Source: a virus
Taxonomy: Duplodnaviria; Caudoviricetes
DNA length: 38,727 bases
Reading direction: 5' to 3' (one strand)
Virus record (IMG/VR): IMGVR_UViG_3300042399_000389
Coordinates: 1-38,727 of that record
Positions 3,257 to 38,625 of the stretch are shown here, piece by piece. The translations under genes were made by a program, and so were the position numbers. How positions within the stretch are numbered: the stretch's first letter is position 1; each line of letters starts with the position of its first letter. Under the pieces are notes generated by a model. The model did not search any database and was not told the origin of the DNA. It worked only from the letters and a program-made list of their open reading frames with translations.

Positions 3257-3546
3257 ATATGAAAATTGATTTAAATTTAATGTCAGAGTTTAAACAAAAG
3301 TCTGAAATTATCAAAAACAAAGAAGCTAAGAGATTAGTGGAAGAGTTACGTGCAGCAACACCTATAGATACGGGTAGAGCTAGAGCAGGTTGGAAATATG
3401 AAGACGGTCAGATAAGCAATGATGTTGAATACATTGATAGACTCAATGCAGGGAGCAGTACACAAGCGCCCACGCATTTTATAGAAAGAACTCTGCTTGC
3501 AAATGAAAATGTAAGCCCTAATGGTGTAATTGTTACACCTAAATAA
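3253..3546 (+). CDS. HK97 gp10-like tail/neck component
   Basis: Motifs TPIDTGRARAGW and N.VEYI..LN.G.S.QAP..F. Confidence 0.8.
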   Translation: MNMKIDLNLMSEFKQKSEIIKNKEAKRLVEELRAATPIDTGRARAGWKYEDGQISNDVEYIDRLNAGSSTQAPTHFIERTLLANENVSPNGVIVTPK

Positions 3547-3550
3547 TACT

Positions 3551-3580
3551 ACCCCCTTATTCTTAAGTAAGGGGGTTTTT
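3551..3580 (+). terminator. Intrinsic terminator / attenuator just before the tape measure gene
   Basis: Stem ACCCCCTTAT / GTAAGGGGGT with a 6-nt loop, then a T run; the RBS GGAG follows at 3584. Confidence 0.75.
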
Positions 3581-3594
3581 AATGGAGAATTTAA

Positions 3595-15500: not shown

Positions 15501-16587
15501 AACAGCCGCAACAGCCTTAGAAAACTTTGCAGCCACTGGCAGTATGGGTGGCGGTGCTGGTGGTTTTGGCGGTCTTAATGGCAGTACAATCGGCTTAAAC
15601 GGCATTCCAGAGGGTATGACAAATTTCTCTAGACAGACAGGTATGGAGGGTGCAACCACTCAGGGTATTGCCGATACAAGCGGTTATGGCGCTACGCCTG
15701 GATTAACACCAATATCTAGTGTAGGTATGGGTGATCTATCGGCTTCAGGTGGTATGGTTGGTGGTGGCGGTGGAATGTTTGATGGTATTTTTGACTTCTT
15801 TTCAAAATTAGATTTTGGTAAGATGTTTGGAAGTCTTGGCAGTCTGTTTGGTCTTGGGGCTGCTACTGGTGGACATATTGTTGGCCCAGGTTCTGGTACT
15901 TCTGACTCTATTCCAGCTAACTTGTCTAACGGTGAGTTTGTCGTAAACGCAGCAGCTACTAAGGGTAATCTAGGGTTATTACACTCTATCAACGCTGGTA
16001 AAAAGGTTCAACATCGTGCCCTAGGCGGTTTGCTAACAATGATTCCAGGACTAGTTGGTGGTATTGGTGGTATGATTAAAGGCGGTGGCGGAGGTGGTGC
16101 AGGTGGTATTATGGGCATGATTTCGCAGTTACTTGGCCCCTTAATGAAGCTGTTTGGTGGCGGTGCAGGTGGTGGCGGTATTATGAGTTTATTTGGCGGT
16201 ACTAAAGCAGCTACTGGTGGAAAGATTGTTGGACCAGGCTCTGGTACTTCGGACTCTATTCCTGCAATGATATCTAATGGCGAATTTGTTGTTAATGCCG
16301 CAGCTACTAAGGCAAACCTTGGTCTTCTCCATAGCTTAAATAGTGGCCGTCAACACTTTGCAGAAGGTGGTTTAGCTGGCGTTTCAAGTGGCATTATGAC
16401 AACACCGACTTCAAAAGGCTTTAAACCAATATCGGTAGATAAGTCAACAAAGAGTACTCAACAGGTAGTTAACCTTAATATAACAGGTGATATCTCTCGT
16501 CAAACTAAGTCAGAAATCTTTAAGATGATGCCTACAATTGCGAGCGGTGTTAATTTACAAAATAAAGAAGCAGGAATTAAACGATAA
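3595..16587 (+). CDS. Tail tape measure protein (4330 aa) with lytic transglycosylase domain and triplicated C-terminal motif
   Basis: N-terminal tape-measure motif (LTQLGQAFSSGVLRGEELNSVMEQTPRIA), long Ala/Leu/Gly helical body with hydrophobic segments, SLT motifs, and C-terminal GG...G.GT..SDSIPA.LS.GEFVVNA.AT repeats. Confidence 0.95.
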   Translation: MSGIVIEVDANTRKAQRNLEEVNTTVKSISQSVNSMADGFKSAFIAIGTTFAADQLLKYVEETTSSLQEMENKVALVVGKSNELYDTQVRLRNIADETNGTYRETVEVFTAMGRAMRNTNVDIDKLARSSKTIQQAVAISGSSAESSKAALTQLGQAFSSGVLRGEELNSVMEQTPRIAGMIADSMGVTLGQMRLIAAQGEITSEVIFKALADQAETINKEFKNIVPTLSTGFLKLKENAAYVFVEFDKGLALSEKLSKSVYNLSQELGKSVDKAYLLGNALRFSLVGFKNPLEDLLEPVKQMLEISIYAIQHSLDTIGLTRFITTVIEPFVTQFTAAIDIAIMRWQMFGKMLRSVKGDDMFYLLKPMQAIGEITALTLRNTLVKVSAEILAYEQSVTGRFRAFIIKEMRSFNIGGEIVWYRMSKQLIQNLRDTVFGTDSVAGIISSFVGSLFLTLSTDLVSGLRDLGETLAGYNILEKLFGVSFGGSKLARIAGNLMVTVAGLVDSLMNSLVNASETFTEELYYRLAEGLNLVLPKFAQIDMPIAFKVHVVFSNIEQSLDKVLDSLVSATAMLSKIDLFGALTDAASYASGVFVEVLNVLLHWITTFSELALRGDLTNWFEALVDKVQYYSDTLIKALAPIQAFGDAVIQVFFEIYDAVIAHSWWTDTIDEIIYTSATLWGNTSVGLKTFGDNVIDLFEVIYTKIGGVLNRIASLDLSKTMFKLNSKLYAYSPNLAGYAKAIEDSIQKSVVFLRDVFSNDLLFKGLRYSFTDTMSGVLSFVNQRFRAWFNTWPLALRQAFSATVMATIFSSLPKVIADGVIGGWLLASSIIAGTSLAITITANTFDKSLGVELGKAAGDIASGVVNGSLVDIPRLIGEGFAFFGNFMENFLTGLPYLGVIFSGIFKIASLFGSAPAVGLLGAWLFGGSLVRLMVELGVYRKGLSDVLQRQRSVQSFFMGTYTGNKTAGGQPTPLGKMSKAFFNDTNRTQSLAITGLMMDFSGMFNSLYKDNVIGHAIARGGLIWLALTGESGLKDLKTGVLDPMLSHLHNAMDRSPVWGKVRDKWRKEVTMSGTGGFSGFTQWMARELNNISLKTSDHLSKAFSKSNKINGGTFLQHLLLGRDANTSGFFDRFILGIESGMKRLQDKIANMKGGSLLNKIIPTPKQIFTALFLVGSLLSAMSAQGATIDSDNYSPFKNYSAKDKDSEKIPTPMFPDANPLQATLDFWESMTATTTQILLAVTAATGVSMIVFKEYKRFAAATYANIDRGALVMSGLSYTLKTIFSMAVEGLVGVIRLLYLETIQFRRPELAGLELLTVRIRSAMAVVLRFLAAVYAPQLFGFGAIGTGLSALGAYAAYMSGPGIALRTAVNARLEAAIIAKDAMFMKLDAKFAKLAYTNATLAPALPLLRTVDMLLQGAAAVGSRAATKAFRLPEGVLAESIASARKSRIAQYMNAPSYAVAAANMATGGERARANFINATDKKGLRNAFGVQETIAVLDVLSSGMRRFANTLKVISGTVDFAMKGISAAATYRATSLLMALYVIGNLVNAIANPKKRGEQEGFMGTGHSMGFDYLGNMPVPGGGEIPLSHLLIPAAIGTFMMKSAKKVGLSRAHDVQMDKITKRWERQNATAIAADEAATRSYNLQKYMFERSAPGTMVPPIMPTMTAPPRPQRLNETQLAARDARKNAKLEWERNQANENWMARQNAKEFARRGIGSAAEFMAMDAVQRSLSGVRLTQKEFLDQRHAERMAAGKGSVIRHNMPAVAGAGIAGAGLLAAGGYLGAKAGSMMSDGSQDGISMGLGIGAVVAGIYGRDIVTGVFNALSNTKNLKLFKWTWIPVALAAAWDSISTAHKTLWDRMSELWEGFKKSIGLKSEPKDAKTGLTESSMIEAAKLGLAPSFDISKIDMSKLSYSEETVFKDTQKRTEEALAASMAERLKMGMVADETANAASEALKALSRVSKEFAAKTKIDVEAMANQMTMLDTRNTVDPSRGTQALEFIGDNWKEALAASIMVLVGNKLRLLKAVGEAAPVVAGEGGAAALGQWMSGQGGNLVRTAVAFTGVKMLEEDVSTAVASGAIEGAALGFSVPTLYKPITAGVGAAIGAAIGYVTSKFSNRNLTDYLSRNYVQFPSKQGFMPEIQTTYDPRKRAEIKPIGPDLSEMDRARLEAENLRVSFVNSVKSSNEAYTSMDKSSPLALEYADRLSNLDTVYANFKKFRYEVTPEGATFDNKTLAANYYASIDRNIDALTEWTDAAKKQTEVLKQVSAREAIAKNEPGFWKPLGVTLDNLKDFQLTGRSFDVGKDLKARGETLVKQTQFPTNELSNANLFEKKRLADKRTYLQTLEADKYLSSQMAVTKLGNDINLGLTEELKYLSEDLTDTLRERIRKIQFVEDQSLNKLQKPSLENIDLLPLAERSAAKARNEILQERYAAELVRRKQEQKNLPGFRFETKQNAFENMLKTPEALSAKLTNLYAADASKVLGSYREIGVEQTNNLLLNKEQLNILREYAVADHQLDLVVDIDKLLNSVDRALTPIAMSVSATLEAAFSGLSVDLLPQDTFLELKSIGNQIARIKKDLDDPESQFLPQEDLIAKQKALKDLKLRADDLAAVLKNTTGESMMSAVSDLGLTAAQRSRITLDQMSAALALSRGKASVTSQLSMATTPQEQQRLIRKAAGYESTTELLKFTATLDKSGFSTVAEALGIDLNKLSTRGKSLLKEFSGLAKYINILKSDSIELNDQAAVDKYLNSLQALARLTERVQMTAKQNTLDILNELSGNSNGLNLSEQLSVGVANGLANTAKLLKQQLSEAITNSGDVLDSVAIRIGKNIQALSSYQPLLSFFAMLADKAEAAIHGGIGKALEQVNKAFPDLKIDATELGKMDPGARKSLTDRAYNLNILTELQSGPLNEDQANVLNRLKELGPEKTIEEFAKVGKSLLESVGFTDVQLNTVALDGVQDALKFNTAALNANTVANGGKPTEVPPNKSVDVTTKPTKDFGNTSDRYDELFRKYAEINKVPFELVKAIAASETNNFSTKAVSSQGAVGIMQLMPTTAEYYGVSDRTDPEESISGGTRYLKRLMKLFPTFPEVAAAYNAGEGSVQKANAKAKASGGTFLDYLPKPKETVPYVSKVMTAYDTFAGNVAPPKQASGPFENYDILKPVLDKAVRRSPIGSFNKNLQNFIPFGGYENLIEPPPSGSSYEDVTRIQGKITLGKPFKPNTLDGGTSPDIIVGGINLTVQDEAIKMVDRLDSFNRMFGNFASDGIGNTLDKVRENISNSLSYNEPYDYQYKAEKIADQVSVNTNLPELKLADLPNKDVKMLGQQVDIRPAANELEILKNALPKEARTLLEKFNTSNKPLAGKYGDALGVDPKTLETLSGSQFAALDKMTQARANVQQQLTEGLGTKGYDASAATQALKNLDDQINSFVEGVNANIAELKLEKAGAYTAANKDNITGFLNKFSSIGTEVTGMMSEADKATAKSMAIQKLYLEDKLAKDSIAGKSTQATSKQLADLADAEGYLKDKTLEAANAAREAGKTFAESLTSTFKDAFKGLLNRESDKGKSIFKTFADKLITGIKDQTVDIFTNAVTDSIGLGKGGVLSKMLSKTGTGLSSGFRALGGGVQSLLSGKGSWEGFTSGVSNWFSNLTSDLDNATPEEIQMAAATKFSDAVDRFAGGSAISGAANAATGSGIGSALMSALPWVGGAAGVAGLGYMATKGGDWSSGLKDLGANFTTKAGSALTPSGNPMETLDPRTGLFGKMDSFDADVTGLFNNKSSSNKNGWSAGLSDSLAKSTPDTTGLWDIIMKPIKWFFSLIGDGFTGIMSFFTGAGQGVGTSSGKPESATSPLDSLKLKFANGGPVSGGGTTTSDSIPAMLSDGEFVVNAKATKENREMLERINRGEVIKRSLGGIVSMGTSLAGRAIGGKTGTALSSLGSIASGVAGMLSSQQAEQAAESLLAASQHLETAATALENFAATGSMGGGAGGFGGLNGSTIGLNGIPEGMTNFSRQTGMEGATTQGIADTSGYGATPGLTPISSVGMGDLSASGGMVGGGGGMFDGIFDFFSKLDFGKMFGSLGSLFGLGAATGGHIVGPGSGTSDSIPANLSNGEFVVNAAATKGNLGLLHSINAGKKVQHRALGGLLTMIPGLVGGIGGMIKGGGGGGAGGIMGMISQLLGPLMKLFGGGAGGGGIMSLFGGTKAATGGKIVGPGSGTSDSIPAMISNGEFVVNAAATKANLGLLHSLNSGRQHFAEGGLAGVSSGIMTTPTSKGFKPISVDKSTKSTQQVVNLNITGDISRQTKSEIFKMMPTIASGVNLQNKEAGIKR
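12619..13005 (+). other. SLT-family lytic transglycosylase domain inside the tape measure protein
   Basis: KAIAASET (candidate catalytic Glu codon at 12694), AVS..GAVGIMQLMP.TA, DP...I.GG.RYL, AAYNAGEG, ETVPYV.KV. Confidence 0.9.
15169..16347 (+). repeat. Three copies of a roughly 47-aa C-terminal tape-measure motif
   Basis: Copies begin at about 15169, 15859 and 16207 (A.GG...G.G..TSDSIPA..S.GEFVVNA.ATK.N...L...N.G). Confidence 0.9.
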
Positions 16588-17219: not shown

Positions 17220-18052
17220 TAACTTTTACCCCAAATGTAAAGTGGGCACTACAACAAGATACTATTGAAGCTTTTTATATGCTTCGTATTCTACAAGAAA
17301 CAGATTGCACGATAGCTGCTGCTGCAGTAGGTGCCACTACAATAAGTTTACTCCCTGCAGTTCCAACACAAAATAAAGTAATAAGAGCTGGCGCAATTGT
17401 TAAATTTGCAGGCGATACAAGTAGTTATTCAGTTGTTACAGGCGGAGATCTTTCTGATACTGTTGCAACTACTGTAACTATCACACCAGCCTTAACAAGT
17501 GCAAAGCTTGTAAATACAAAAGTTACATTTGAATACAATGTAATACATAGTACAAGTTTGTTTATGGATATAGATCTACTAGATTCTGCAGATCTTCCTG
17601 TGCCAGGGCATAGCTACATTTCAGATGATACAATTGCAAGTGTGGATGCACCACAAGCTACTACTAACGTAGATAGAGAACAATTTAGAATTTTACTAAA
17701 TGATCCACGGCTAGAATCAATGGAAACTGTGTTTAATAATTTAATTGGTTATCCTATTGAAGTTAGACTAGGCTTTTTAAATGTTGACACTTGTCTGCCT
17801 TTTTTCAAATTTTCTGATACTCTTTTAGTGTATAAAGGACGTGTAGATAGTACGGCATACTCGATTAAGACACAAGAAATGGGCGAAGCTGTATTACAAG
17901 TAACTGGTTCAAGTCCAATGAGAAGCTTAGACGCAAAGAATTCATTATTTCTAAGCAGAGATTATGTACGTCAGTTAACTCCAAAAGATTCCTCTTGTGA
18001 CCAAATCTTTGAAGGATCAGAAGCTCTTGTATTAAAGTGGGGTAGAATCTAA
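17216..18052 (+). CDS. Putative baseplate hub / minor tail protein
   Basis: 278 aa; LVYKGRVD motif and C-terminal R...P.D.........LKWG; lies between the distal tail and tip genes. Confidence 0.65.
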   Translation: MITFTPNVKWALQQDTIEAFYMLRILQETDCTIAAAAVGATTISLLPAVPTQNKVIRAGAIVKFAGDTSSYSVVTGGDLSDTVATTVTITPALTSAKLVNTKVTFEYNVIHSTSLFMDIDLLDSADLPVPGHSYISDDTIASVDAPQATTNVDREQFRILLNDPRLESMETVFNNLIGYPIEVRLGFLNVDTCLPFFKFSDTLLVYKGRVDSTAYSIKTQEMGEAVLQVTGSSPMRSLDAKNSLFLSRDYVRQLTPKDSSCDQIFEGSEALVLKWGRI

Positions 18053-21000
18053 TGGTATTTTTAACACTAACACTTGGCATGTGGCTTATGGTAGCAATGG
18101 TTGCTATCTCAGTCGGAATGACAATTTATAGCTTAATGCAAACACCACCAGCCTTTGACACAAGTGCTTTAGAAGCTCGTAAAGGAGCTGAAGTTGTTAT
18201 TGAAGGAAAGTCAGAAGATCTCCCACTAGTTTATGGAAGAGCTATGGTAGGTGGCGCACGTGTATTTCATGCAGTATCTAGTGACTTTAACTACGTAGCA
18301 CCTAATGCAGATAGAACGTTTGCAACAGGTGTTAATCATACGGTAAATTGGACTGCAGAAAAATATGTAGTTCAAAATCCACGTGGACCAAATGCAACGC
18401 TGTTAAAAGTAGCTAGTACAGGTACAACTGAAATTCTCACTCAATTAGCAAAAAGTATTAACGGTAGGAAGAATGAATTTTTATACTTTCAACAAGCAAT
18501 TTGTCAAGGCCCGATTGGTGGTGTAATTGATGTTGTATTAGAATCATCGCGTTATTTAGATGACGCAACCTTAGCTACATTTGGTGCTCCAGATAACCTT
18601 GCTACTGGTGAAAAGCATAAATGGAGTGACCCGAAAAAGGCTCGTACAGCTGTTAGGATTGATGTACATTACGACCTAGCGATGAATGTTGCAGACAGTA
18701 TTATTGCAGCTAATTTCCCTGAAAGATCAGATGCTACTTTTAATAATATGGTATATGCTTCTGCTACAGTACGTACAGATAGAGACGATCCACAGTTTAG
18801 CCAACCACCTAGCCTACAGTTCTATATAGAAGGCAAGAAAGTTCGTAAGGTTGTAAATGGAGTACTAAATACAAATTTTGAGTATAGTAATAACCCAGCT
18901 TGGTGTTTGTTAGACTATCTATTAGACGGTCTCTCTGGTGCATCAATTCCTATTGAAGAGATTAATCTTCCAAGCTTTGAAGCTGCTTCTTTAGTTTGTG
19001 ATTATATTGTTGAGCCAAGTGTAACAACAGCGGGAAAGATTTGGCAGAATACAGAAGGAGATCGCAATATTCATACTAGAGCTTTGCCTCTTTATGAATG
19101 CAACATGGTCATTGACACTAAGAAGCCAATTAGAGATAATATCACCGGCATGCTAACTAGTATGGGTGATGCACGTTTAGTGTGGTCACAAGGGCAGTAT
19201 AAATTAAGTCTTCAATACACACATACAAGTAATGATGATTTGTTTATTGTAGCTGAGCTTGGTGAAGATGACTTAGTGCTTGACCAAGAAGTTGAAATTA
19301 ATTTACCTTCAGCTAGTGATCGCTTAAATTACTGTACAGTTAAGTTTCATAATGAATTGTCTAATTTTAAAGAAGATTCTGTAAGCTGGCCTCCTAAGTT
19401 TCCTGGTAAGGTTTATAAAGGTGTTGGCGGTAAGAAATACCCTATTGCAGATTATAGTTACACAGAAGACAATGATGATGGTACCTTTAATAAGGGCGCC
19501 AATTTATTAAACTCTGTAGGTGTCTGGGGATCTACTCTTAATACTACATACTTAAGCTATCATATCATTTTGACTTATGAAGATGTTATGGACCCCATTA
19601 CTAATCTGCTCGGACCTGTTAAGTTAGAGTACACAGGTGATAATCAGATTAGAATTAAGGTTAGCGACAAAACCACTAGTAACCTTTATTTAGATCAACA
19701 ACACAAAGACTGGAAATCAGTAAAAACATCTACAATCACATTACCAATTCTGCCGGGTGAAACACAAGTTTTTCATATAGAAATATGGGGAACAAATACT
19801 AAGGGAGACAAAGCTGTAGCTGCTAGGATGACTAATGGCCCTAAAATATTGTGGACAACTCGTGAATCAGCTTACTCAGATGTATTAGAAATTGATAACA
19901 CTAGTACGACATACTCAGTCTTCTTAGAAGAAGATGGCGGTACTAAGTTAGAAATGGAAACTTCAGTTGAAGCAATGACAGACCCCTATCATGCAGCAGC
20001 TAAGGCAGAAGAATACGTAAGGATGAGTCGATCGTCTTTTGTAATTAAATTCAAATATGTTGTAAGAGAGAATTATCTAGAGCCTGGCGATTTCGTTAAA
20101 CTCAACAGTCCTACACTTAATCTTGCAGGTGAAATATTTAGAATCAATTCTGTTAAGATTGTTGAGGGCAATAATTGTGAAGTAACCGCGCAACGCTTTG
20201 ATCATTTACAATTAGCTTGGTCGCAAAAAGATGACCAGTTTATGGTTCCGCCAAATATTTATAGTAATCTTTTTAATCCGCCAAGAAATCTTAAATACAT
20301 ACCTACGGGTAGTTCCCGATTAATTACATCAGGTACTTTAACTTGGGACGCTCCAAGTGATTCTGTAGATTTGGCTTATTATATTGTATCTGTACACGAA
20401 GCCGATGGACCCGTTCGAACTAACAATGCTCCAATTTTTAGAGAATTAGGGCGCGTAGCTGAAAATTATTATGTATTACCTAAGCTAGAAGCTTTTAGCG
20501 CAATATTTTCAGTAATGGCTGTTAGCACATCTGGGCGTCGTTCTACTACAATCTATACTGGTGATAAAGCACAAATAATAGATGTTTATGACTCGTATCT
20601 ATTTGATGGGTTAACAGTGTCACGTAGTAATCTTATTGTAAATTGGACGGCCTGTAATGTATATGAGAGCGGTGTTCTATTAAAAGCTTTACCAGCGGGT
20701 ACAGCCACATGGACAGAAGGCCTGTTGTTTATCTACTTTGATTTTGTTAATGATAAGATTATTAAAGCTACAACAGATTATGCTGAAGTTTATAATGGCG
20801 TTATATTAGCTACCTTTGATGGTGTTGATCTTAATTTGAGTGTATCAGAATTAGATGCGCCTGCAGTATTAACTATTGAAGGACGTACCGATACAGTATT
20901 TGATTCTAAAGACGCTAAGATTGTTTGGCAAGCTAATTCTTCAAACCGTTCAGCAAGTACTTTCTTAAAACATTATCTTGTTCAAGTGCTTACTACCGCA

Positions 21001-24000
21001 GATGTATTAAAGAAGGCTTATGTAATTACACCTGATAAAGATGATGCAGGTTCTTTGCTAGTTACTGATACAATGAATTTAGAGTTGTTCGGAACATTAA
21101 CTCGTAGCTTTAAAGTTCGTGTATATACAGTTGATTCTGCAGGATTGCTATCGGCAACACCTAAAGTTTCTACTATTACGAATGCAGCACCTTTAGTAAC
21201 AACTTTAGAACTAACACCAACTGTTAAGGCTGTGTTTGTAAAAGCTGCAATCATGTCTGAAGATGATATTGTTAAGTATGAATTTAAACAATATGCAACT
21301 GAAACAGCAACAACTGCAGAAAATACAGTAACAACAGTTAGTAATAGTTGTACATTTCCTACAGCTGACGATTTAGATCGTTGGTACACAGTGACTGGAT
21401 ACGACTACTACGGTATTGGTGTCGAGTCTGCGCGTATGAAAGAGAAGTCATTATCACAACCGCAATCAACTGGTTATGCGTTCTTACGGTATGCGAGTGA
21501 TACACCGCCTGTTGCACCGACTGGTGGTACGTACCTACTGCCGACACCCACAGCAGGCACAGCAACTGACCCACTTGGCACGCTGGCGTGGGAGGATGGC
21601 ATCCCTGATGGCACGGCACGCTTGTGGCAGACAACGCGAATATTCACGGCTGACGAGCAACCACCGCATCAAACGGCATGGCAAACACCACAGTTAGTGG
21701 CAAACACTGCTACAACAAAGTATCAATATAGCTCTGTCAATCCACCTACAACAAGTTATGCAGACTGGGCGGATGCGCCTGGATTAACAACGTTGTATAT
21801 GAGAGTTGGTATATCTAAAGATGGTGCAGATGGTCCATGGGAATGGGGAGCAGCTTATAAGGTTAAGGGCGAAGCACCTCAAACTAGTTTCTTATCTACT
21901 GTGTTTACTAGAAGTACAGGCAATACAATACCACCTTTGCCTACTGGCGGTACATTTCCAAGAGGTATTCCTAGTGCCCCCTGGTCTGATGGTATTCCTG
22001 CTGGTACAGGTAAGATTTATACTTCTAATAGATTATTTACTAGTGACGGCCAATCGCCACAAGATTCTACTTGGAATACAGTAACTTTAATGGTTACTAA
22101 CGACAAGACTAAGTTTCAGCTTAATAATAGCGATCCTGTTGATAGCAATGCGTGGTACGATTCTGATGATGCTAGTAAAGACCCTACGCTTGCAATCTAT
22201 ATGCGTATTAATTATTCTGAAGATGGTGGTACAACTTGGTCATATGGTGCTCCTTCAAAAATAAAAGGTGAAAAAGGCGTTCCTGGTTATACAAGTTTTG
22301 TTAGTACTGTATTCACCAGAACAAAAGGGATTCCCTTACCTACACCTCCATTACCTTCTGGTGGTAGTTTTAATAGTGATGGTTTGCCAACCGATGGAGT
22401 ATGGACTGACGGAATACCTGCCTTACCTGGGGTACTCTGGAGTTCATATAGAACTTTTTCAAATGATCCTGCAGAAGCAGCTACCAACTGGTCTACACCT
22501 GTTCGTATTCTAGATGATAGCAATACGGATTATCAATTCAGTCTTACAAATAGTTCTGACAATAGTACATGGCAAGACAATGAATTTGAAGGCGCTGTAT
22601 ACATGCGTATTGGTACATCCGTTGATGGTGTAAACTTTGTATATGGTACAGGGATCAAGATCAAGGGTGAGAAGGGTAATCCTGGTTTTATTTCATTTAA
22701 GAGTACTGTATTTACTAGACGTGCTGCAAATAACCCTGTTAATACAAAGCCTACTGGTGGTTCTTTTGAACAACCGCGTCCTGTAGAAACAGAATGGGAA
22801 GATGGTATACCAAGCGGTGAAGGTATTGTATGGCAATCATACACTACATTTACAAATGATGTTACTGCAGCTACGCCTATTTGGAGTGATCCTGAAGCTG
22901 TTATTAATGATGATAAGACTAAGTACTATTTTAATACTACTAATGCAACTACAGGTTGGTCTGAAACACCAGACATTAATACTGTGTGGATGCGTATTGA
23001 TACCAGTATTGACGGGTTCTTAACAACTATTACTGGAACACCTTTCAAGATAAAAGGTGAAAAAGGTGATGACGGTTATGCAGTATTTAAGAGTACTGTA
23101 TTCACTAGACGTGCTGCAAATAATCCACCGTTAGAAGCACCAACAGGCCTTACTTCTGGCAGTCTTCCGGTGAATACCGAATGGAAAGATGGAATTCCTC
23201 CGTTGCCAGGTATTCTTTGGGAATCACATGCATCTATTAGTACAGATCCTTTGATAACAACTACAACATGGTCATTTCCAAAGCAAATCTTAGATGATAA
23301 TAATACAAAGTATTACTTTAACAGTGCTAATGTAGCTACAGGGTGGTCACAAGCACCAAGTACCACTACTGAATGGATGCGTATTGACACAAGTAGTGAT
23401 GGCTTTTTAACTACTGTTACTGGTACACCATTTAAGATTAAAGGTGAAAAGGGTGAAACAGGTTCCGGAATTGATATAAGGTTAACAAAAGAATTAGTTT
23501 ATATTCCTACAACATTGGCAGATGTTTCTGATTATTCTAATGCAACTACAGGTATTGTTGTTCAAAACAATAATGTAGATGTTGTGTACTCAGCAACTGC
23601 TGTTACGCTTGTTGGCGCATTACCTAATACCTATAGTGTAACTTTTGAAAAAGAAAATCTTACAGGTACACCTTCTTTAGAAGTAATTAACGGGGTTGTT
23701 ACGAGTAAAGATTTTGGTACAATTACACAAGGTGTTGCAAGACTTATATTTGTTATTACAATAAAAGATCAGTATGGAAATATACTAGGCCCGTTTAAGA
23801 AAGCGCAATCACTTGTGAAGCAATTTCCTGATGGCGTTTTAGATCTTTTAAATACAAGTAAGGAACAACTTAGTGTAAATGGAACAGTCTTAAATCCTGT
23901 AACAGATATTACAGTTACGTATTCTCCTGATAAAAATGGAGATGGCCGTACTGATGGTTTTATAAACTGGCAATACCCTCTTGATGCAGCCATAAGTGGT

Positions 24001-27000
24001 TTTGTAGTATGCTATAATAACGTTAGATATGCCCCAGGTACAACTGACTATATACTTTCTGATTATACTTGCGAAGATGTTTTAAACAATATTAAACATC
24101 AGATTGTACAAATTGGTACAGGCTCAAGAGTTGTTAGAGTACCCGATATGGGTACGGAAAGTCATCGAGTTGGTTTTGTATTTGCTTTTAGAATACTATC
24201 AAAAGATACCTGGGATAATTACGCCTTCTCCAAATTAAAGCACAAAGGTGAGTATTATGCTGTTTCTTCACCAACAGTGCTTGGCACCACTATTGTAGAA
24301 AAGAGTGCGCCGAATCGTTATACTGATGTTGTAAACAAAGACATGGAAATAACTCTGGAAGACGGCACCACAATCAAAGTATCTGAAATCTTTGAAAACG
24401 GCCTTAGAGTAAATGTTATTAATAGTAACGTAGCATTAGTAGCGCCTACTGATGGTACGGTTGCATTTACTTATTCTAACGCAGATGCTGTCAGTAGTAG
24501 TGTAAATCTGCAAATCACATTTGAAGCAAGTAATGTAATAGCTGTAACATCTGGATATGCTTTTTGTGTTATAAGTAAAGATACTGCAGATTTAGTCCAA
24601 TTTGAAAATTTGACTGTAAAGCAAATTATGGAGACTAAAAAGACATTTACAAAATTTGTTGATGCAGCTAATGGCATACTACAGCCAAATGGTAGATTCA
24701 AGTATTCTGTTGAAGCAGCTAATGTTCCTGGCGCACTAAATCATGCTGTATATATTTTTGCATTTAGATATGCATCAGGTGCTAAAACTTCCAAAGCCAC
24801 TTATACCGATGGTACAACTAAAATACCATACTATGTATCTCCTGTCCTTAAGGCCGGTACAACAAAGTATAGCGGTAATGTTATTATTAAGGGCGATGTA
24901 ATTGAAGATAAAACAGGCACAACGACCAATTTAACAGATCTGTATACAGTTATTACAGATTGGAATGACGGTAATAACAGAACATTAACGGCAATAACAG
25001 CATTACCTATAATCCCTACAACACCAGCGCCTATTGTTTACGATAGTTCTGCAAATAGTTCGGGCAATGTAGATTACACGCTTAATTTCTTCTATAATGG
25101 AGTTGTTATATCGCCTGCAACTGGTGCAGATGACAGTATTGATGGTTTTTGTATTTTAGAGCAAACTGTATTACCTAACGCTACTGGACTGCCAACCGCT
25201 AATATAGCTGCTCCTACAGTTGCAAAGATGATTATTAATCCTGCTGCAAGATTTATTGATGCAAAAGATTATGTAGCTATAGATAACGGTACATATAAGT
25301 ATGAAGTAAAAATGCCTGAAGCAAAGGCAATACCCTATCGAGTAGTCTTTATCTTTGCATATCGTGCAATATCTGCTGGACAAGCTAAGCTTATTCAAAA
25401 AGGTGCAACTCTTATAGAGCTTGGTACTAAAGAAAAGAAATCGTATATTGTATCTACTATTGTAAGAACTCACCCCCTAGCTACTCCCAGTCTATTTACC
25501 GGAGACTTGTATATAAGAGCCGGCTTAAAGGATAGTTATGGAAATACAATAGCTATTAACAAGCTTACAGAAACTATTGCTGATTTTGACGTAACTAACA
25601 ATAAGTCCACCGCTAAGATTGTACCCGTAACTAATTTAGCACTTAGCTATAATATTATTGGTTGTACTTCTGGTAATGTCAATCTAGTTATTGACTTTTA
25701 CTTTACAGGAAGTTTAACAGATATAGATGGGTTTATCTATTATGAGGCTACACTACCTGAACAAGCCAATATAAGTGATCTTACTCATAAAACTTTATTT
25801 GCAAAACCAGATGCAAAGTTTATTGACGTAGACTCTACAGTGGCTAGTGCACACTTTACAGTTGAAATACCTGAGTCTAAAACAACACTATTTAGAACAG
25901 TATTTGTTTGTGCTTTTAGAGAAGTTTATGATAGTGTCTATAAAGCTGCGGGAAATTTGCCAACAGCTACTAGACCTGATAGGTTAACTTATGGTAAGAG
26001 ATTTTTAATTGTAGGGCCAATAGCTCGTAGTCACGTTAATGGTAATTTGTATCAACCACAAACACAGGCAATCATAAAGGCAGGTGTAAATGTAGGTGGT
26101 ACCAAGGTTGTTACGCTGTCGGATGCAATCGGTGATTGGGATTTAACAAATAATGGCGGATTAGCAGGCATGACAGCTACAGTACCAGCCCCTACATATC
26201 CAATGGATGGAACAGGAATGGTATTGACTGGTAGCACATTAGAAACTAATGTTGATATCCTGGTCAAATGGGAGTATGTTCTAGCACAGATATTAGATCC
26301 AATCACGAATACGCTAATAAATCCTATTGATGGCTTTCTTATCTATTTAAGAGAAGATACAAATACTTCTCCCGATGCTATGATTGATTTAAATAAACTT
26401 ACTGTTAAGCACACTTTTGTCACAACAGATGTTGACCAGCGTGAATATACTTTTTCAAACATGCCTATGAAGACTAAGAAGGCTTTGAATTATTATAATA
26501 TTGCCGTATTTGCGTATCATCTTATTAGCGAAAATACGTATACAAAGGGCATTAAAGATTCAACAATTAAGTCTAGTCTTAAACGTCCTGCTGCATTTAA
26601 TACGCCAATGGTTATATCGGCTAATACAGGGTATGTATTCTCAGCAAACAAGTCATATGTGTTAAAAGATACAGCAGACTCATTACCGCATGAGTTCGCA
26701 ATTGTTGGTGACTATTGGCTAAACACTTCAGGAAGTACAACAGCAGGTATTGAACATCTAAGCTATGGGTACTTTAATAGTGCTGGCTGGTCTCAGCTTA
26801 CTGAAGACGAAGTTATTAAGAAGTTTAATGCAGCTCGTGCTTCAAAAGAGGGTATAATTCATACTTACAGCTCTCCTATTGAACCGCCAAACAAGCCTGG
26901 ATTTTATTGGAAGAATACTTCAGCTGATGTTCAATCTGGTGTAGCCTCAAATGGTATTGTATATTGGGATATAGATCGCCTACTCTGGCAACCAAAAGAA

Positions 27001-27348
27001 GCTAAGATTGGAGGATTAATACAAGCCACTCCAGCAGCAACTATACCGTATGAGGGTAGTGTTCTGCTAAGCACAACAGTAAACTTAAATGGTACAAGAA
27101 CGCTATACAGAGGTCGTAACGGTCAATGGGAGCCTTTTGTTGATTTATCATCTAGCGAAATCTTTAAAACTGTTAAGTTAATGAACGCTAATAAGGTTGC
27201 AACCAAAGCCTTGGTTACAGATACAGGCGGTTATTATACTCGTGTTATCAACTCGAAGGGCAAACTACCTGCTTGGTCTAAAACTGCTAATGATATATTT
27301 GCTAAAAGCTTATTGGCAGGTAACGTTTTACCAACTTTAATTTTATAG
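18052..27348 (+). CDS. Tail tip / host-specificity protein (lambda gpJ-like), 3098 aa, with Fn3-like domains and two repeat arrays
   Basis: LPLVYGR...GG, YSNNPAWCLLDYL, N...VKF.N...FK.D and LEPGD.V.......FRI motifs, followed by PPRNL...LTWDAP (Fn3-like) and repeats. Confidence 0.9.
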   Translation: MVFLTLTLGMWLMVAMVAISVGMTIYSLMQTPPAFDTSALEARKGAEVVIEGKSEDLPLVYGRAMVGGARVFHAVSSDFNYVAPNADRTFATGVNHTVNWTAEKYVVQNPRGPNATLLKVASTGTTEILTQLAKSINGRKNEFLYFQQAICQGPIGGVIDVVLESSRYLDDATLATFGAPDNLATGEKHKWSDPKKARTAVRIDVHYDLAMNVADSIIAANFPERSDATFNNMVYASATVRTDRDDPQFSQPPSLQFYIEGKKVRKVVNGVLNTNFEYSNNPAWCLLDYLLDGLSGASIPIEEINLPSFEAASLVCDYIVEPSVTTAGKIWQNTEGDRNIHTRALPLYECNMVIDTKKPIRDNITGMLTSMGDARLVWSQGQYKLSLQYTHTSNDDLFIVAELGEDDLVLDQEVEINLPSASDRLNYCTVKFHNELSNFKEDSVSWPPKFPGKVYKGVGGKKYPIADYSYTEDNDDGTFNKGANLLNSVGVWGSTLNTTYLSYHIILTYEDVMDPITNLLGPVKLEYTGDNQIRIKVSDKTTSNLYLDQQHKDWKSVKTSTITLPILPGETQVFHIEIWGTNTKGDKAVAARMTNGPKILWTTRESAYSDVLEIDNTSTTYSVFLEEDGGTKLEMETSVEAMTDPYHAAAKAEEYVRMSRSSFVIKFKYVVRENYLEPGDFVKLNSPTLNLAGEIFRINSVKIVEGNNCEVTAQRFDHLQLAWSQKDDQFMVPPNIYSNLFNPPRNLKYIPTGSSRLITSGTLTWDAPSDSVDLAYYIVSVHEADGPVRTNNAPIFRELGRVAENYYVLPKLEAFSAIFSVMAVSTSGRRSTTIYTGDKAQIIDVYDSYLFDGLTVSRSNLIVNWTACNVYESGVLLKALPAGTATWTEGLLFIYFDFVNDKIIKATTDYAEVYNGVILATFDGVDLNLSVSELDAPAVLTIEGRTDTVFDSKDAKIVWQANSSNRSASTFLKHYLVQVLTTADVLKKAYVITPDKDDAGSLLVTDTMNLELFGTLTRSFKVRVYTVDSAGLLSATPKVSTITNAAPLVTTLELTPTVKAVFVKAAIMSEDDIVKYEFKQYATETATTAENTVTTVSNSCTFPTADDLDRWYTVTGYDYYGIGVESARMKEKSLSQPQSTGYAFLRYASDTPPVAPTGGTYLLPTPTAGTATDPLGTLAWEDGIPDGTARLWQTTRIFTADEQPPHQTAWQTPQLVANTATTKYQYSSVNPPTTSYADWADAPGLTTLYMRVGISKDGADGPWEWGAAYKVKGEAPQTSFLSTVFTRSTGNTIPPLPTGGTFPRGIPSAPWSDGIPAGTGKIYTSNRLFTSDGQSPQDSTWNTVTLMVTNDKTKFQLNNSDPVDSNAWYDSDDASKDPTLAIYMRINYSEDGGTTWSYGAPSKIKGEKGVPGYTSFVSTVFTRTKGIPLPTPPLPSGGSFNSDGLPTDGVWTDGIPALPGVLWSSYRTFSNDPAEAATNWSTPVRILDDSNTDYQFSLTNSSDNSTWQDNEFEGAVYMRIGTSVDGVNFVYGTGIKIKGEKGNPGFISFKSTVFTRRAANNPVNTKPTGGSFEQPRPVETEWEDGIPSGEGIVWQSYTTFTNDVTAATPIWSDPEAVINDDKTKYYFNTTNATTGWSETPDINTVWMRIDTSIDGFLTTITGTPFKIKGEKGDDGYAVFKSTVFTRRAANNPPLEAPTGLTSGSLPVNTEWKDGIPPLPGILWESHASISTDPLITTTTWSFPKQILDDNNTKYYFNSANVATGWSQAPSTTTEWMRIDTSSDGFLTTVTGTPFKIKGEKGETGSGIDIRLTKELVYIPTTLADVSDYSNATTGIVVQNNNVDVVYSATAVTLVGALPNTYSVTFEKENLTGTPSLEVINGVVTSKDFGTITQGVARLIFVITIKDQYGNILGPFKKAQSLVKQFPDGVLDLLNTSKEQLSVNGTVLNPVTDITVTYSPDKNGDGRTDGFINWQYPLDAAISGFVVCYNNVRYAPGTTDYILSDYTCEDVLNNIKHQIVQIGTGSRVVRVPDMGTESHRVGFVFAFRILSKDTWDNYAFSKLKHKGEYYAVSSPTVLGTTIVEKSAPNRYTDVVNKDMEITLEDGTTIKVSEIFENGLRVNVINSNVALVAPTDGTVAFTYSNADAVSSSVNLQITFEASNVIAVTSGYAFCVISKDTADLVQFENLTVKQIMETKKTFTKFVDAANGILQPNGRFKYSVEAANVPGALNHAVYIFAFRYASGAKTSKATYTDGTTKIPYYVSPVLKAGTTKYSGNVIIKGDVIEDKTGTTTNLTDLYTVITDWNDGNNRTLTAITALPIIPTTPAPIVYDSSANSSGNVDYTLNFFYNGVVISPATGADDSIDGFCILEQTVLPNATGLPTANIAAPTVAKMIINPAARFIDAKDYVAIDNGTYKYEVKMPEAKAIPYRVVFIFAYRAISAGQAKLIQKGATLIELGTKEKKSYIVSTIVRTHPLATPSLFTGDLYIRAGLKDSYGNTIAINKLTETIADFDVTNNKSTAKIVPVTNLALSYNIIGCTSGNVNLVIDFYFTGSLTDIDGFIYYEATLPEQANISDLTHKTLFAKPDAKFIDVDSTVASAHFTVEIPESKTTLFRTVFVCAFREVYDSVYKAAGNLPTATRPDRLTYGKRFLIVGPIARSHVNGNLYQPQTQAIIKAGVNVGGTKVVTLSDAIGDWDLTNNGGLAGMTATVPAPTYPMDGTGMVLTGSTLETNVDILVKWEYVLAQILDPITNTLINPIDGFLIYLREDTNTSPDAMIDLNKLTVKHTFVTTDVDQREYTFSNMPMKTKKALNYYNIAVFAYHLISENTYTKGIKDSTIKSSLKRPAAFNTPMVISANTGYVFSANKSYVLKDTADSLPHEFAIVGDYWLNTSGSTTAGIEHLSYGYFNSAGWSQLTEDEVIKKFNAARASKEGIIHTYSSPIEPPNKPGFYWKNTSADVQSGVASNGIVYWDIDRLLWQPKEAKIGGLIQATPAATIPYEGSVLLSTTVNLNGTRTLYRGRNGQWEPFVDLSSSEIFKTVKLMNANKVATKALVTDTGGYYTRVINSKGKLPAWSKTANDIFAKSLLAGNVLPTLIL
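21469..23457 (+). repeat. Five tandem repeats of about 130-136 aa in the tip protein
   Basis: STVFTR at 21895, 22303, 22702 and 23092, plus a diverged first copy. Each has W.DGIP, (Y/W)MR...S.DG and K(I/V)KGE. Confidence 0.9.
23890..26640 (+). repeat. Five degenerate repeats of about 185-200 aa (beta-sandwich-like) in the tip protein
   Basis: Recurring (D/S)G(F/Y) motif, and (F/C)A(F/Y)(R/H) at 24181, 24757, 25354, 25909 and 26509. Confidence 0.7.
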
Positions 27349-35243: not shown

Positions 35244-35400
35244 AGAGCCTTCAACATGGTTTGGACTGATTTCAGCTACATTGGCTGTATTAAGTTCATT
35301 CAAATTTGTTACACTAACAGCAGAAGAAATGGATAGTCTGCTTGCGTTGTCAGTTGCTCTTTTGGGCAGTGGTAGCGTAGTATCCAAAGATCCACAATAG
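35218..35400 (+). CDS. Holin-like small membrane protein (60 aa)
   Basis: RLKEPSTW.G start, two hydrophobic segments, last gene of the late operon; RBS GGAG. Confidence 0.65.
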   Translation: MKYIWARLKEPSTWFGLISATLAVLSSFKFVTLTAEEMDSLLALSVALLGSGSVVSKDPQ

Positions 35401-35406
35401 CGGTAC

Positions 35407-35434
35407 GCCTCGACACAACTGTCGGGGCTTTTTT
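35407..35434 (+). terminator. Intrinsic terminator ending the late operon
   Basis: GCCTCGACA-CAAC-TGTCGGGGC followed by TTTTTT. Confidence 0.9.
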
Positions 35435-35439
35435 ACGAG

Positions 35440-35640
35440 AGTCATGGGGGCAATTTTGCGGGGCAAGACGGGGCATTTCTGCACGAATTTTGGTGGGCGG
35501 CAAATCTGGGCGTGTGTGGCGCGGGGCGGTGGGGGCATCACTGGTGGATCAGGGCGGCAGTTGCGTGCCGTGTAGGGCGGTTTCTGGTGCCAGAACTGGT
35601 ACACGTGGGGCAGTTGCGTGCAGTTCTTCAGGTACACTCA
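35440..35640. other. G-rich non-coding island with short direct repeats (function unknown)
   Basis: 80 of 120 bases are G+C at 35461-35580. GGCAGTTGCGTGC occurs at 35556 and 35609, CGGGGCA at 35459 and 35469, GGTACAC at 35598 and 35631. Confidence 0.7.
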
Positions 35641-35651
35641 ACCCCGTTAAA

Positions 35652-35680
35652 TTAACCCTTGCGGCCTCCCCCTGTATTAT
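35652..35680 (+). promoter_or_regulatory. Possible sigma70-type promoter
   Basis: TTAACC-N17-TATTAT upstream of the first early gene; imperfect match in AT-rich DNA. Confidence 0.3.
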
Positions 35681-35695
35681 CTCTCTTAGTAATAC

Positions 35696-35727
35696 GGAAA
35701 TAATAGTATCTTATATGAAGTACAATA
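35696..35727 (+). promoter_or_regulatory. Conserved phage promoter/operator motif, copy 1
   Basis: GGAAA-N5-GTATCTTATATGAAGTACAATA; the 22-mer is at 35706-35727, upstream of RBS AGGAG and the ATG at 35751. Confidence 0.8.
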
Positions 35728-35750
35728 ATAACTTTATATAGGAGAATACT

Positions 35751-36581
35751 ATGGAAAACGAAAACATAAGAATAGCACATCAATTTACGCTAAATAGACG
35801 CGATGCTACAAAACGATATGGTATTGCGCCATACCCGCAGTTTGATGCTTCTGAGAAGTACAGAAGTAAAGGTATGCAAGAAACCTTAGAAATGTTATGG
35901 GGTGTATACAAAGATGCAAATCAACTCGAAATTATCGCAAGAGTGTATACAATAGAATCTTTATGGTACTTAACTAAAAGAATTTTTGTAATTGATCCAA
36001 CAGTGGCAACAGAATTACTTAACTCTAAAGTATCTAAGAAAATAGATATGTCACAAGTAAGACTTCCTGACTGGGGCATTGCTGTAAGCGCAGGTAACCT
36101 GCGATTTAAAGCCGCCAAATTTCGATTACATTGTGATGGGTATTGTAAAGATCGATTAGTCTTCTGGGTACATGAGTCAGAAACTCAGCTTAATAGATTG
36201 TTTATGTATCCTGCAGATGAGGTTGTCGATCTAAGCGAATTTGAAGATGCCCAAGGGGATCAAATCCTGTCGGTGATATTGTATATAAGTGCAGTCAAGG
36301 ATACAATACCAAAGGCTTCACGTTCAAATAATCATGCCAAGCAGCCTAAAAAGATAAAACATTTTGATATGCCTGAACACTCAACCTCAGTAGTACTTGG
36401 TGCAAAGTTAGGGGAAAGGTTACGAGCTGGATATACTGGTACTAAACTCTCAAATGGAATGAAAGCTCATATTCGTAGGGCACATTGGCACAACTACTGG
36501 ACAGGCCCTAAAGACAACAGAAGGTTAATATGTAAGTGGACAAACTCCACGGGTGTTAATATGAATTTAGCCGATGTATAA
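35751..36581 (+). CDS. AcrVA2/FinQ-family protein (putative anti-defence factor)
   Basis: Collinear motifs that I recall from AcrVA2: W..T..I...D, LPDW, (L/I)G..LG...R and HIRR(A/G)HWH.YW.G......W.....VN. Recognised from memory, not by search. Confidence 0.7.
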   Translation: MENENIRIAHQFTLNRRDATKRYGIAPYPQFDASEKYRSKGMQETLEMLWGVYKDANQLEIIARVYTIESLWYLTKRIFVIDPTVATELLNSKVSKKIDMSQVRLPDWGIAVSAGNLRFKAAKFRLHCDGYCKDRLVFWVHESETQLNRLFMYPADEVVDLSEFEDAQGDQILSVILYISAVKDTIPKASRSNNHAKQPKKIKHFDMPEHSTSVVLGAKLGERLRAGYTGTKLSNGMKAHIRRAHWHNYWTGPKDNRRLICKWTNSTGVNMNLADV

Positions 36582-36616
36582 CGCGGGAAATACGGTATCT
36601 TATATGAAGTACAATA
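36580..36616 (+). promoter_or_regulatory. Conserved phage promoter/operator motif, copy 2
   Basis: AACGCGGGAAA-TACG-GTATCTTATATGAAGTACAATA; the 22-mer is at 36595-36616, upstream of the ATG at 36635. Confidence 0.85.
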
Positions 36617-36634
36617 CTAACTTGGAGATTAAAA

Positions 36635-37595: not shown

Positions 37596-37753
37596 GCGAA
37601 TGGTATAGTTTTATTGAAGCAATGTTAATGGTTGGTTTTTATTTTGTTTATGTAGCTTACAATGTATTTGCAGAAGACTGCAAAGATAGACGTAAGTATT
37701 GCAAAGCACGCCGGTGGCTACGTCAAGCTATTATCCAAAAGGACTACAAATAA
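37592..37753 (+). CDS. Small putative membrane protein (53 aa; not in ORF track)
   Basis: MSEWYSFIEAMLMVGFYFVYVAYNVFAEDCKDRRKYCKARRWLRQAIIQKDYK; ATGA coupling; one hydrophobic segment and a basic tail. Confidence 0.7.
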   Translation: MSEWYSFIEAMLMVGFYFVYVAYNVFAEDCKDRRKYCKARRWLRQAIIQKDYK

Positions 37754-37789
37754 ACGCGGGAAACGGGGTATCTTATATGAAGTACAATA
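37753..37789 (+). promoter_or_regulatory. Conserved phage promoter/operator motif, copy 3
   Basis: AACGCGGGAAA-CGGG-GTATCTTATATGAAGTACAATA; the 22-mer is at 37768-37789, upstream of the ATG at 37823. Confidence 0.85.
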
Positions 37790-37822
37790 AGGTACCTCAA
37801 TTAACTTAACAAGGAGAATACT

Positions 37823-38087: not shown

Positions 38088-38273
38088 ATGGAAGGTACAA
38101 TTTTTGAAATCGGTGGTTATGAGTTTTACATAGCTTGGAATGAAAAGATGACAATCTACAAGGTTTGGTATGATCGCGGCAATTACCTTGATAGACGCGC
38201 TCCAAAGTTTGAATGCACTTCTTATGAAGAGTCTGTAGCATTCTGTAAACTCAAATACGCTTACTGCGGGTAA
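38088..38273 (+). CDS. Hypothetical protein (61 aa)
   Basis: ATG at 38088 with RBS AAGGTG; a GTG start at 38079 is an alternative; the stop TAA forms part of the ribozyme stem III. Confidence 0.75.
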   Translation: MEGTIFEIGGYEFYIAWNEKMTIYKVWYDRGNYLDRRAPKFECTSYEESVAFCKLKYAYCG

Positions 38274-38327
38274 GTGTCTCGGGATGTGTATCCCAACTGA
38301 CGAGTCTGAAAAGACGAAACACACTTA
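38271..38327 (+). ncRNA. Type III hammerhead ribozyme; predicted cleavage after C38278 (GUC)
   Basis: Core CUGACGA at 38297-38303; stem II GUCU-GAAA-AGAC at 38304-38315; core GAAA at 38316-38319; stem III GUGU(38274-77)/ACAC(38319-22) extended by UAA/UUA; stem I GGGAU/AUCCC with a closing U-A pair. Confidence 0.9.
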
Positions 38328-38338
38328 GGAGTTATATT

Positions 38339-38515
38339 ATGTTTACTATTGAAATCAATGATGTAGAAATTGAAATGAAAGAAACAGGAATGGGTATTTG
38401 GGAAGGTTCTAGAGAATTTTATCAAGTAGTATTTGATGAATTTCTTCAAGAGTTGTTTGTAGCGTCAATGCTAGGCAACCGTATTGTTAAGTGTGAGAGC
38501 CAATTCTTATGCTAA
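38339..38515 (+). CDS. Hypothetical protein (58 aa, acidic; not in ORF track)
   Basis: MFTIEINDVEIEMKETGMGIWEGSREFYQVVFDEFLQELFVASMLGNRIVKCESQFLC; RBS AGGAG at 38327-38331. Confidence 0.75.
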   Translation: MFTIEINDVEIEMKETGMGIWEGSREFYQVVFDEFLQELFVASMLGNRIVKCESQFLC

Positions 38516-38625
38516 AACATACAGTTTATGGTATTGGAAATACCGTAATGTCTTCAATAGATATGAGTGCAGATGTAATTACAATTGGGCTAGTATTAGC
38601 TCTACTTTTAATGTTTACAAAATAG
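38509..38625 (+). CDS. Possible small membrane peptide (38 aa)
   Basis: MLKHTVYGIGNTVMSSIDMSADVITIGLVLALLLMFTK; overlaps the upstream stop and fills the gap to the next RBS. Confidence 0.5.
   Translation: MLKHTVYGIGNTVMSSIDMSADVITIGLVLALLLMFTK

Follow-up and report, generated by a model that had tools for sequence, protein, structure and literature searches.

What does a hammerhead ribozyme do when it lies between two small genes in the early region of a phage genome? The question is raised by a 38,727-nt stretch of caudoviricete DNA (IMG/VR record IMGVR_UViG_3300042399_000389, positions 1 to 38,727), hereafter the window, in which a type III hammerhead is found between the stop codon of a 61-aa gene and the ribosome-binding site (RBS) of a 58-aa gene. 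A sequence-only reading of the locus had proposed a self-processing switch, in which ribosomes terminating at the upstream stop would gate cleavage and cleavage would make the downstream RBS more accessible. Our analyses suggest instead that the hammerhead is probably a built-in, host-independent self-cutting site after C38278 in a polycistronic early message, working without true on/off control. This reading builds on the sequence of the ribozyme, its family, the covariation of its stems and its position before a start codon; the fates of the cleavage products are what we infer from these. The features of the locus are collected in Table 1.

Table 1. Features of the ribozyme locus, numbered from the first base of the window.
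Feature	Position	Strand	Basis or remark
45-nt promoter-like repeat, third copy	37752..37796	+	likely start of the ribozyme transcript
Upstream 61-aa gene with its own RBS, stop UAA 38271-73	38088..38273	+	ORF
9-bp hairpin over the upstream gene's last codons and stop	38257..38277	+	folding, -8.8 kcal/mol
Type III hammerhead, catalytic register (4-bp stem III, stem I, core, stem II)	38274..38322	+	motif, Rfam and phage-model matches
GUC triplet and predicted scissile bond C38278/U38279	38276..38279	+	RF00008 alignment; hammerhead chemistry; RNA contig gap
Stem-loop I: U-A, C.A mismatch, 5-bp stem, GUGU loop	38279..38296	+	folding; subfamily (n=87 unique); PaP3
Core CUGACGA (C3-A9)	38297..38303	+	motif, RF00008 alignment
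Stem-loop II, 4 bp, GAAA loop	38304..38315	+	pair probabilities 0.97-0.99
Core GAAA and stem III 3' strand	38316..38322	+	RF00008 and phage-model alignments
Slipped (inactive) stem III partner of 38271-38277	38321..38327	+	folding; comparison with relatives
Shine-Dalgarno (SD) AGGAG (38327-31), spacer and ATG (38339) of the downstream gene	38327..38341	+	
Downstream 58-aa gene, no family	38339..38515	+	ORF

Every part of a type III hammerhead named in the sequence-only reading was found in its place. The core holds C3, U4, G5, A6, N7, G8 and A9, G12, A13 and A14, the U16.1-A15.1 pair and H17, with the GUC at 38276-78 and the core GAAA at 38316-19. Three helices surround it, stem I (arms 38279-85/38290-96, mismatch C38280.A38295) and stem II (arms 38304-07/38312-15, GAAA loop) being closed by loops and stem III being open. 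In the catalytic register, stem III is limited to 4 bp (38274-77/38319-22), inside the 3-9 range of the phage hammerhead family described below. The loop of stem-loop I is GUGU, or UGUGUA if its last U-A pair opens. Fast natural hammerheads are described as having a 5' U and an extrahelical pyrimidine in loop 1 and a 3' A in loop 2 (Dufour et al., PMC2632901). The loops UGUGUA and GAAA fit this motif, in a match of sequence only in which loop 1 was fixed by our search pattern; the contact is predicted here with a loop 1 of 6 nt, compared with 7 nt in the motif as given by Dufour et al. (PMC2632901). All the sequence features of a type III hammerhead that are open to test are present, and self-cleavage is predicted.

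Covariance-model searches bore out this assignment. The Rfam model Hammerhead_3 (RF00008) matched 38271-38325 over all 54 model positions (35.4 bits; E 2.9e-5 in a search of 2.7 kb against 4227 families), and an identical ribozyme copy in an overlapping 49.8-kb record of the same phage was matched with an E of 1.3e-7. The score lies below the RF00008 gathering score of 48.5 bits, so that by score the window copy is no formal member of this family, and 0 matches were returned when the whole window was searched with Rfam at the gathering score. The match is full length and all core bases are common to the model and the window copy, whereas stem III and loop II are longer in the model; the copies in relatives are likewise below the gathering score (34.6, 31.6 and 27.7 bits). 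A second model, R1, was built from 61 phage hammerheads, with the window phage left out and the members found by a pattern taken from the window copy, and it scored the window copy at 49.4 bits (E 3.2e-10) and the next site in 88.5 kb at 13.8 bits. The next-best R1 sites (13.8 and 13.4 bits) are without the core and were rejected as hammerheads. The further copies for which the sequence-only reading had suggested scanning the rest of the genome were found neither in the window nor in the 49.8-kb record, and the ribozyme is single-copy in about 84 kb of this phage.

The genes around the ribozyme form an operon that runs past the window end towards a gene for a T7-type RNA polymerase (L125:4878-7097; PF00940, E 6e-67). 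An overlapping record places this polymerase ~640 nt past the window end and, after it, DNA polymerase A, a primase-helicase and a ribonucleotide reductase; the window itself comprises a siphophage tail module and then small early genes. The closest RNA polymerase from a cultured phage is that of DSS3_VP1 (33%), and DNA of the window's phage is present in lake-water runs. The small proteins flanking the ribozyme have no PHROGs or Pfam family. The 61-aa protein has one homologue (98%) and a protein model (pLDDT 0.75) with viral look-alikes at a cosine of 0.86-0.87, a lead only, and no usable Atlas match was obtained for the 58-aa protein. When a 276-aa early protein was used as the query, its matches were confined to the window's own phage. 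Minus-strand ORFs of 84 and 62 aa overlap the ribozyme element and were set aside for want of support. A 45-nt repeat occurs at three sites (35690-35734, 36579-36623 and 37752-37796), confined to the early region and found nowhere else in the records searched; it is conserved in relatives, and the lake runs hold further copies with other flanks. We infer that this repeat is an early promoter, the third copy of which would start the ribozyme-bearing transcript.

Conservation in relatives, on which the sequence-only reading had set store, turned out to be partial. The ribozyme is kept in three records at 85% polymerase identity (43.4 bits; 77% over 83 nt), and in this orthologue stem II is changed but paired, both neighbouring genes are unrelated to the flanking genes of the window and the cut follows the upstream stop by 37 nt. 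Three relatives at 55-57% RNA polymerase identity, two of them 98-100% complete, yielded no hammerhead, so the ribozyme is dispensable in the wider clade. Another record of the clade has two hammerheads flanking one 115-aa gene. In every clade copy the three G-C pairs of stem I are immediately preceded by a mismatch (C.A or A.A); an extra AC in the window copy occurs in none of the other clade copies compared. A second match in G003 (21.7 bits) was discarded, having no paired stems and reading like coding DNA. The retention of the same ribozyme between different genes in close relatives offers a natural comparison.

In order to place the window copy among phage hammerheads, we drew on pattern scans of viral sequences. 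A first scan gave 120 matches in 118 loci, 90 of them unique; both stems pair in 78 of these 90, though the pattern did not demand pairing, and 72 of the 78 have a start codon within 45 nt. Among 61 aligned members, a subset of the 78 that was pre-filtered for pairing and from which near-duplicates and the window's phage were left out, 6/6 stem I pairs and 3/4 stem II pairs change on both sides, which provides the stem covariation anticipated by the sequence-only reading. Searching with a second pattern, built around stem-loop I, returned 164 matches, of which 87 were unique. In all 76 parsable members of this subfamily the last base of loop II is A, and stem I position 1.2, which is mismatched in the window copy, is paired in 74 of them. 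Several loci (L152:4553-4614, L215, L249, L263, L266, L315 and L338) have an extra U between A9 and stem II and a 5-bp stem II, and other members of the subfamily have U-U at 10.1-11.1 or a loop II with a long insertion (L219, L221, L226 and L232). Together, the scans yielded 181 unique hammerheads in 141 clusters, of which 130 have flanks, and in 104 of these 130 a start codon lies within 60 nt.

In 70 of the 130 flanked clusters, the cut lies no more than 8 nt from the end of a hairpin of -10 kcal/mol or lower, as against 30, 23 and 16 at three upstream offsets (Wilcoxon p 4.5e-13; the control offsets are mostly coding DNA), and at -8 kcal/mol the corresponding numbers are 87 of 130 as against 43, 35 and 32. 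Hairpins ending at the cut are likely a family trait that protects or locks the upstream product, although the excess may reflect ordinary intergenic hairpins. Stem III is disturbed less by the native upstream sequence than by shuffled sequence (median 1.1 versus 2.2 kcal/mol, p 9e-5), as expected for constitutive cutting. Hairpins that sequester stem III were considered as a family-wide regulatory trait and rejected, the 5' strand being mostly captured in 32 of the 130 members compared with ~40 expected from shuffles. The family-wide layout of a 3' hairpin or pseudoknot, the cut, a capped leader and an RBS fits processing rather than switching.

The best match in a cultured phage was to a group that includes PaP3; the blastn match was weak (E 0.7), and inspection shows a hammerhead at the genome end. 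The PaP3 ribozyme (AY078382.2) is a type III hammerhead listed among the active variants in Fig. S6 and Table S1 of Perreault et al. (2011; PMC3088659). It has a near-identical stem-loop I with the same GUGU loop, a 4-nt NAAA loop II and a short stem III, and it is placed just before an early gene, as in the window. Its core, however, is a U10.1-U11.1 variant with a GUA triplet, whereas the core of the window copy is canonical. The PaP3 ribozyme also stands before the first gene, with no stop upstream of it and 5 nt between the core and the ATG, while the window copy bears the C.A mismatch, overlaps a stop codon and has an SD leader. The near-identity of stem-loop I in cultured PaP3 makes function testable in a laboratory strain. 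Phage and prophage hammerheads have been proposed to process long polycistronic transcripts, and tandem prophage hammerheads are reported to cleave in vitro and in E. coli (PMC3088659); a 2019 review calls the role of intergenic phage hammerheads largely elusive (PMC6765202). The clustered prophage and phage hammerheads described in these sources (PMC3088659, PMC6765202) are, like the window copy, intergenic and upstream of variable small genes, whereas the window phage, which looks like a lytic siphophage and encodes a T7-type RNA polymerase, carries a single copy. Such intergenic hammerheads have been on record in phages since 2011, and the window ribozyme is a further example of them.

The processing reading that we favour can be followed through to the two RNA products. 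Cutting after C17, a hammerhead leaves a 2',3'-cyclic phosphate and a 5'-OH. Decay that depends on the 5' end is slowed by a 5'-OH or a 5' hairpin, and exonucleases are slowed by 3' hairpins. Cleavage after C38278 would split the early message, independently of the host, into an upstream and a downstream piece. The upstream mRNA would end in the 9-bp hairpin and a 2',3'-cyclic phosphate, and this hairpin would tie up the released strand of stem III so as to oppose re-ligation, and would slow down 3' exonucleases. The downstream mRNA would begin with a 5'-OH, would be capped by stem-loop I two bases from its end and would carry a 60-nt leader with the RBS, a form expected to resist 5'-end-dependent decay. 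In this respect the sequence-only reading, which had foreseen a 5'-OH, hairpin-capped downstream mRNA, is upheld by the predicted fold, stem-loop I starting at the cut. Comparable arrangements exist elsewhere: RNase III processes the T7 early transcript into hairpin-protected messages, and synthetic RiboJ insulators put a ribozyme directly ahead of an RBS. The role proposed for the window copy would parallel that of RNase III in T7, an intergenic cut yielding hairpin-protected messages, but the cut would be self-catalysed and would leave a 5'-OH and a cyclic phosphate in place of the 5'-phosphate ends of RNase III. With RiboJ it shares the position directly before an RBS, RiboJ being engineered and the window copy natural.

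The cut, at 3789/3790 in L149 coordinates, is left unbridged by the RNA contigs of two studies, a weak in vivo hint of cleavage. In metatranscriptome X15, six of the seven junctions between the consecutive contigs listed are overlaps of 27-31 nt, and at the seventh a true gap stretches from 3777 to 3843. A contig of X16, from the same sample, starts at 3820, and one of X17, from another study, starts at 3805, the upstream piece ending at 3704; a single contig of the DNA run X8 (3286-5600) spans the cut. X16 and X17 have other gaps as well, the ends do not fall at one base and no loose ends were found at the RNA contig gap. The break could also stem from structure or an internal promoter. As its cause, an internal sigma-70 promoter at the cut was rejected, there being no consensus site in 38090-38558, a result that applies to this promoter type alone. 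The RNA contigs are deeper on the downstream side of the cut; since genes cannot be ranked by contig depth, this difference was given no weight. The strains in the RNA runs differ from the window by ~2-6% and show no gap at the extra AC; runs X19 and X20 gave only short unrelated stretches.

Folding predicted two competing structures that the sequence-only reading had overlooked, the 9-bp hairpin at 38257-38277 and a slipped stem III. That reading had the whole intergenic gap folding as a hammerhead: all the parts are indeed present, but the minimum-energy fold of the gap (z 0.29) is a different one, and both structures compete with the hammerhead. It also had stem III reach from the stop codon to the first base of the RBS. 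The overlap with the UAA is real, but lengthening stem III in this way through a 2-nt bulge is destabilising (-6.3 versus -9.4 kcal/mol for the plain 4-bp form), and the pairing requires either the bulge or the slipped, inactive register. The slipped register (-11.6 versus -9.4 kcal/mol for the active one) is made possible by the extra AC, which is absent from four distinct copies in relatives. In naked RNA the 9-bp hairpin, which is exactly the 3'-terminal hairpin of the predicted upstream product, captures the 5' strand of stem III with a probability of 0.84, and the active stem III amounts to only 1-2%, as computed from secondary-structure energies in a model without tertiary and Mg2+ energies. 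Given the competing hairpin and the slipped register, cleavage of the window copy is predicted to be slower than that of a clean copy, and is probably also slower than in its relatives. The overlap with the stop codon likely arose by a gene swap that replaced the usual spacer and pseudoknot of the clade.

The same hairpin is the starting point of an alternative that we consider unlikely, in which cutting is activated by translation. The hairpin would form first and trap stem III, to be melted when an elongating ribosome came close to the stop; the active fold would then be available for a short time, which would tie cutting to translation of the upstream gene. In keeping with this, and with the high predicted probability of the hairpin, masking the RNA up to 38259-62 or 38272-73 lifted the predicted active fraction from 0.01 to 0.38-0.60, though masking up to other positions did not, and in the orthologue L340 the upstream sequence competes with stem III too, by 5.0 kcal/mol, a value that none of 20 shuffles reached. 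However, the penalty that the upstream sequence puts on stem III in the window is 2.4 kcal/mol, which ranks 37 of 130 and is reached by 7 of 20 shuffles, and the family as a whole avoids such interference. The competing element of the relatives, moreover, sits after the stop and not within codons, and the exposure window would be just a few codons long. We found no study of a translation-gated natural hammerhead in the literature searched, a search that most subscription papers fall outside. If this alternative were true, the locus would be a natural translation-sensing ribozyme, held off by a hairpin in the last codons of the upstream gene, and the downstream early message towards the RNA polymerase gene would be released and stabilised only in a translating host. 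If ribosomes matter here, the modelling indicates that an approaching ribosome would melt the inhibitory hairpin, an effect opposite in sign to that of the sequence-only reading.

It is also doubtful that the window holds a decaying, largely inactive copy, one that has lost the upstream pseudoknot of the clade, has gained the AC and carries a mismatch in stem I. Such decay would account for the favoured slipped register, for an AC without counterpart in the four distinct relative copies and for a stem I mismatch that is rare in the subfamily, but all the core bases are intact, the divergent strains of the RNA runs show no gap at the AC and, as a weak point, RNA contigs break at the site. The C.A mismatch had been entertained as proof of decay and is weakened as such, a mismatch at this place being a trait of the clade.

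The gating originally proposed fared less well. The footprint of a ribosome terminating at a stop extends some 9 nt beyond it, which at this locus takes in the GUC and the foot of stem I. Among the 130 flanked members, all type III, 90 have an upstream ORF of at least 50 aa ending nearby (by a simple ORF rule). Just one of these, the window copy itself, has its stop at most 8 nt from the cut, and five have it within 15 nt; the commonest distance is 31-45 nt upstream, and the orthologue, with its different flanking genes, falls in this range at 37 nt. Under a looser ORF rule, three more loci (L038, L067 and L084) had an ORF that stopped 4 nt short of the cut, though these may be spurious frames. 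Nor is cleavage predicted to make the RBS more accessible: the GGAG is already 92-95% unpaired in the local precursor, opening the region from -16 to +13 would cost 5.1-6.5 kcal/mol before and 5.2 kcal/mol after cleavage, and opening the SD alone 1.4-2.5 kcal/mol before and 1.1 kcal/mol after (at most 1.3 kcal/mol less). With the stop overlap not conserved, its pairing to the RBS base confined to a bulged or inactive register and the RBS already open, neither leg of the proposed switch holds, and it is very improbable that ribosomes terminating at 38271 block stem III and that cleavage exposes the RBS.

The pseudoknot of the clade is of the H type, with a stem 1 of 4-5 bp, a 6-bp stem 2 and a loop ending in AAAC (L152:4526-4556, L153:4395-4425, L358:1009-1040 and L358:2120-2150; loci L373-L509). 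It is directly 5' of the clade's hammerheads and elsewhere stands alone before an RBS. By our estimate it occurs in about 7000 viral stretches, often before tRNA genes or RBSs, and it precedes a hammerhead in 2 of 144 unique matches. Two of its stem 1 pairs hold in 117/119 and 118/119 sequences, with four pair types. It had no Rfam match in 19 loci, was not found in paper searches and is absent from the sequences of the window's phage that were searched.

A few further observations concern the rest of the early region and the tail module. About 560 nt past the window end, L149:4802-4845 forms a hairpin of 16 bp plus 3 bp (-30.3 kcal/mol, z -3.55), 30 nt before the start of the RNA polymerase gene and followed by a U-rich run; it could be an RNase III site or a terminator, and it was not found at the corresponding place in L152 or L153. 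Besides its T7-type RNA polymerase, the siphophage encodes, within the window, a 4330-aa tape measure protein with a transglycosylase-like region (3595-16587) and a 3098-aa protein without a PHROGs family (18052-27348). The stretch at 35400-35690, which separates the tail module from the first early promoter, is GC-rich and non-coding and contains short repeats; it is ~75% conserved in relatives and may be a genome end or terminal repeat.
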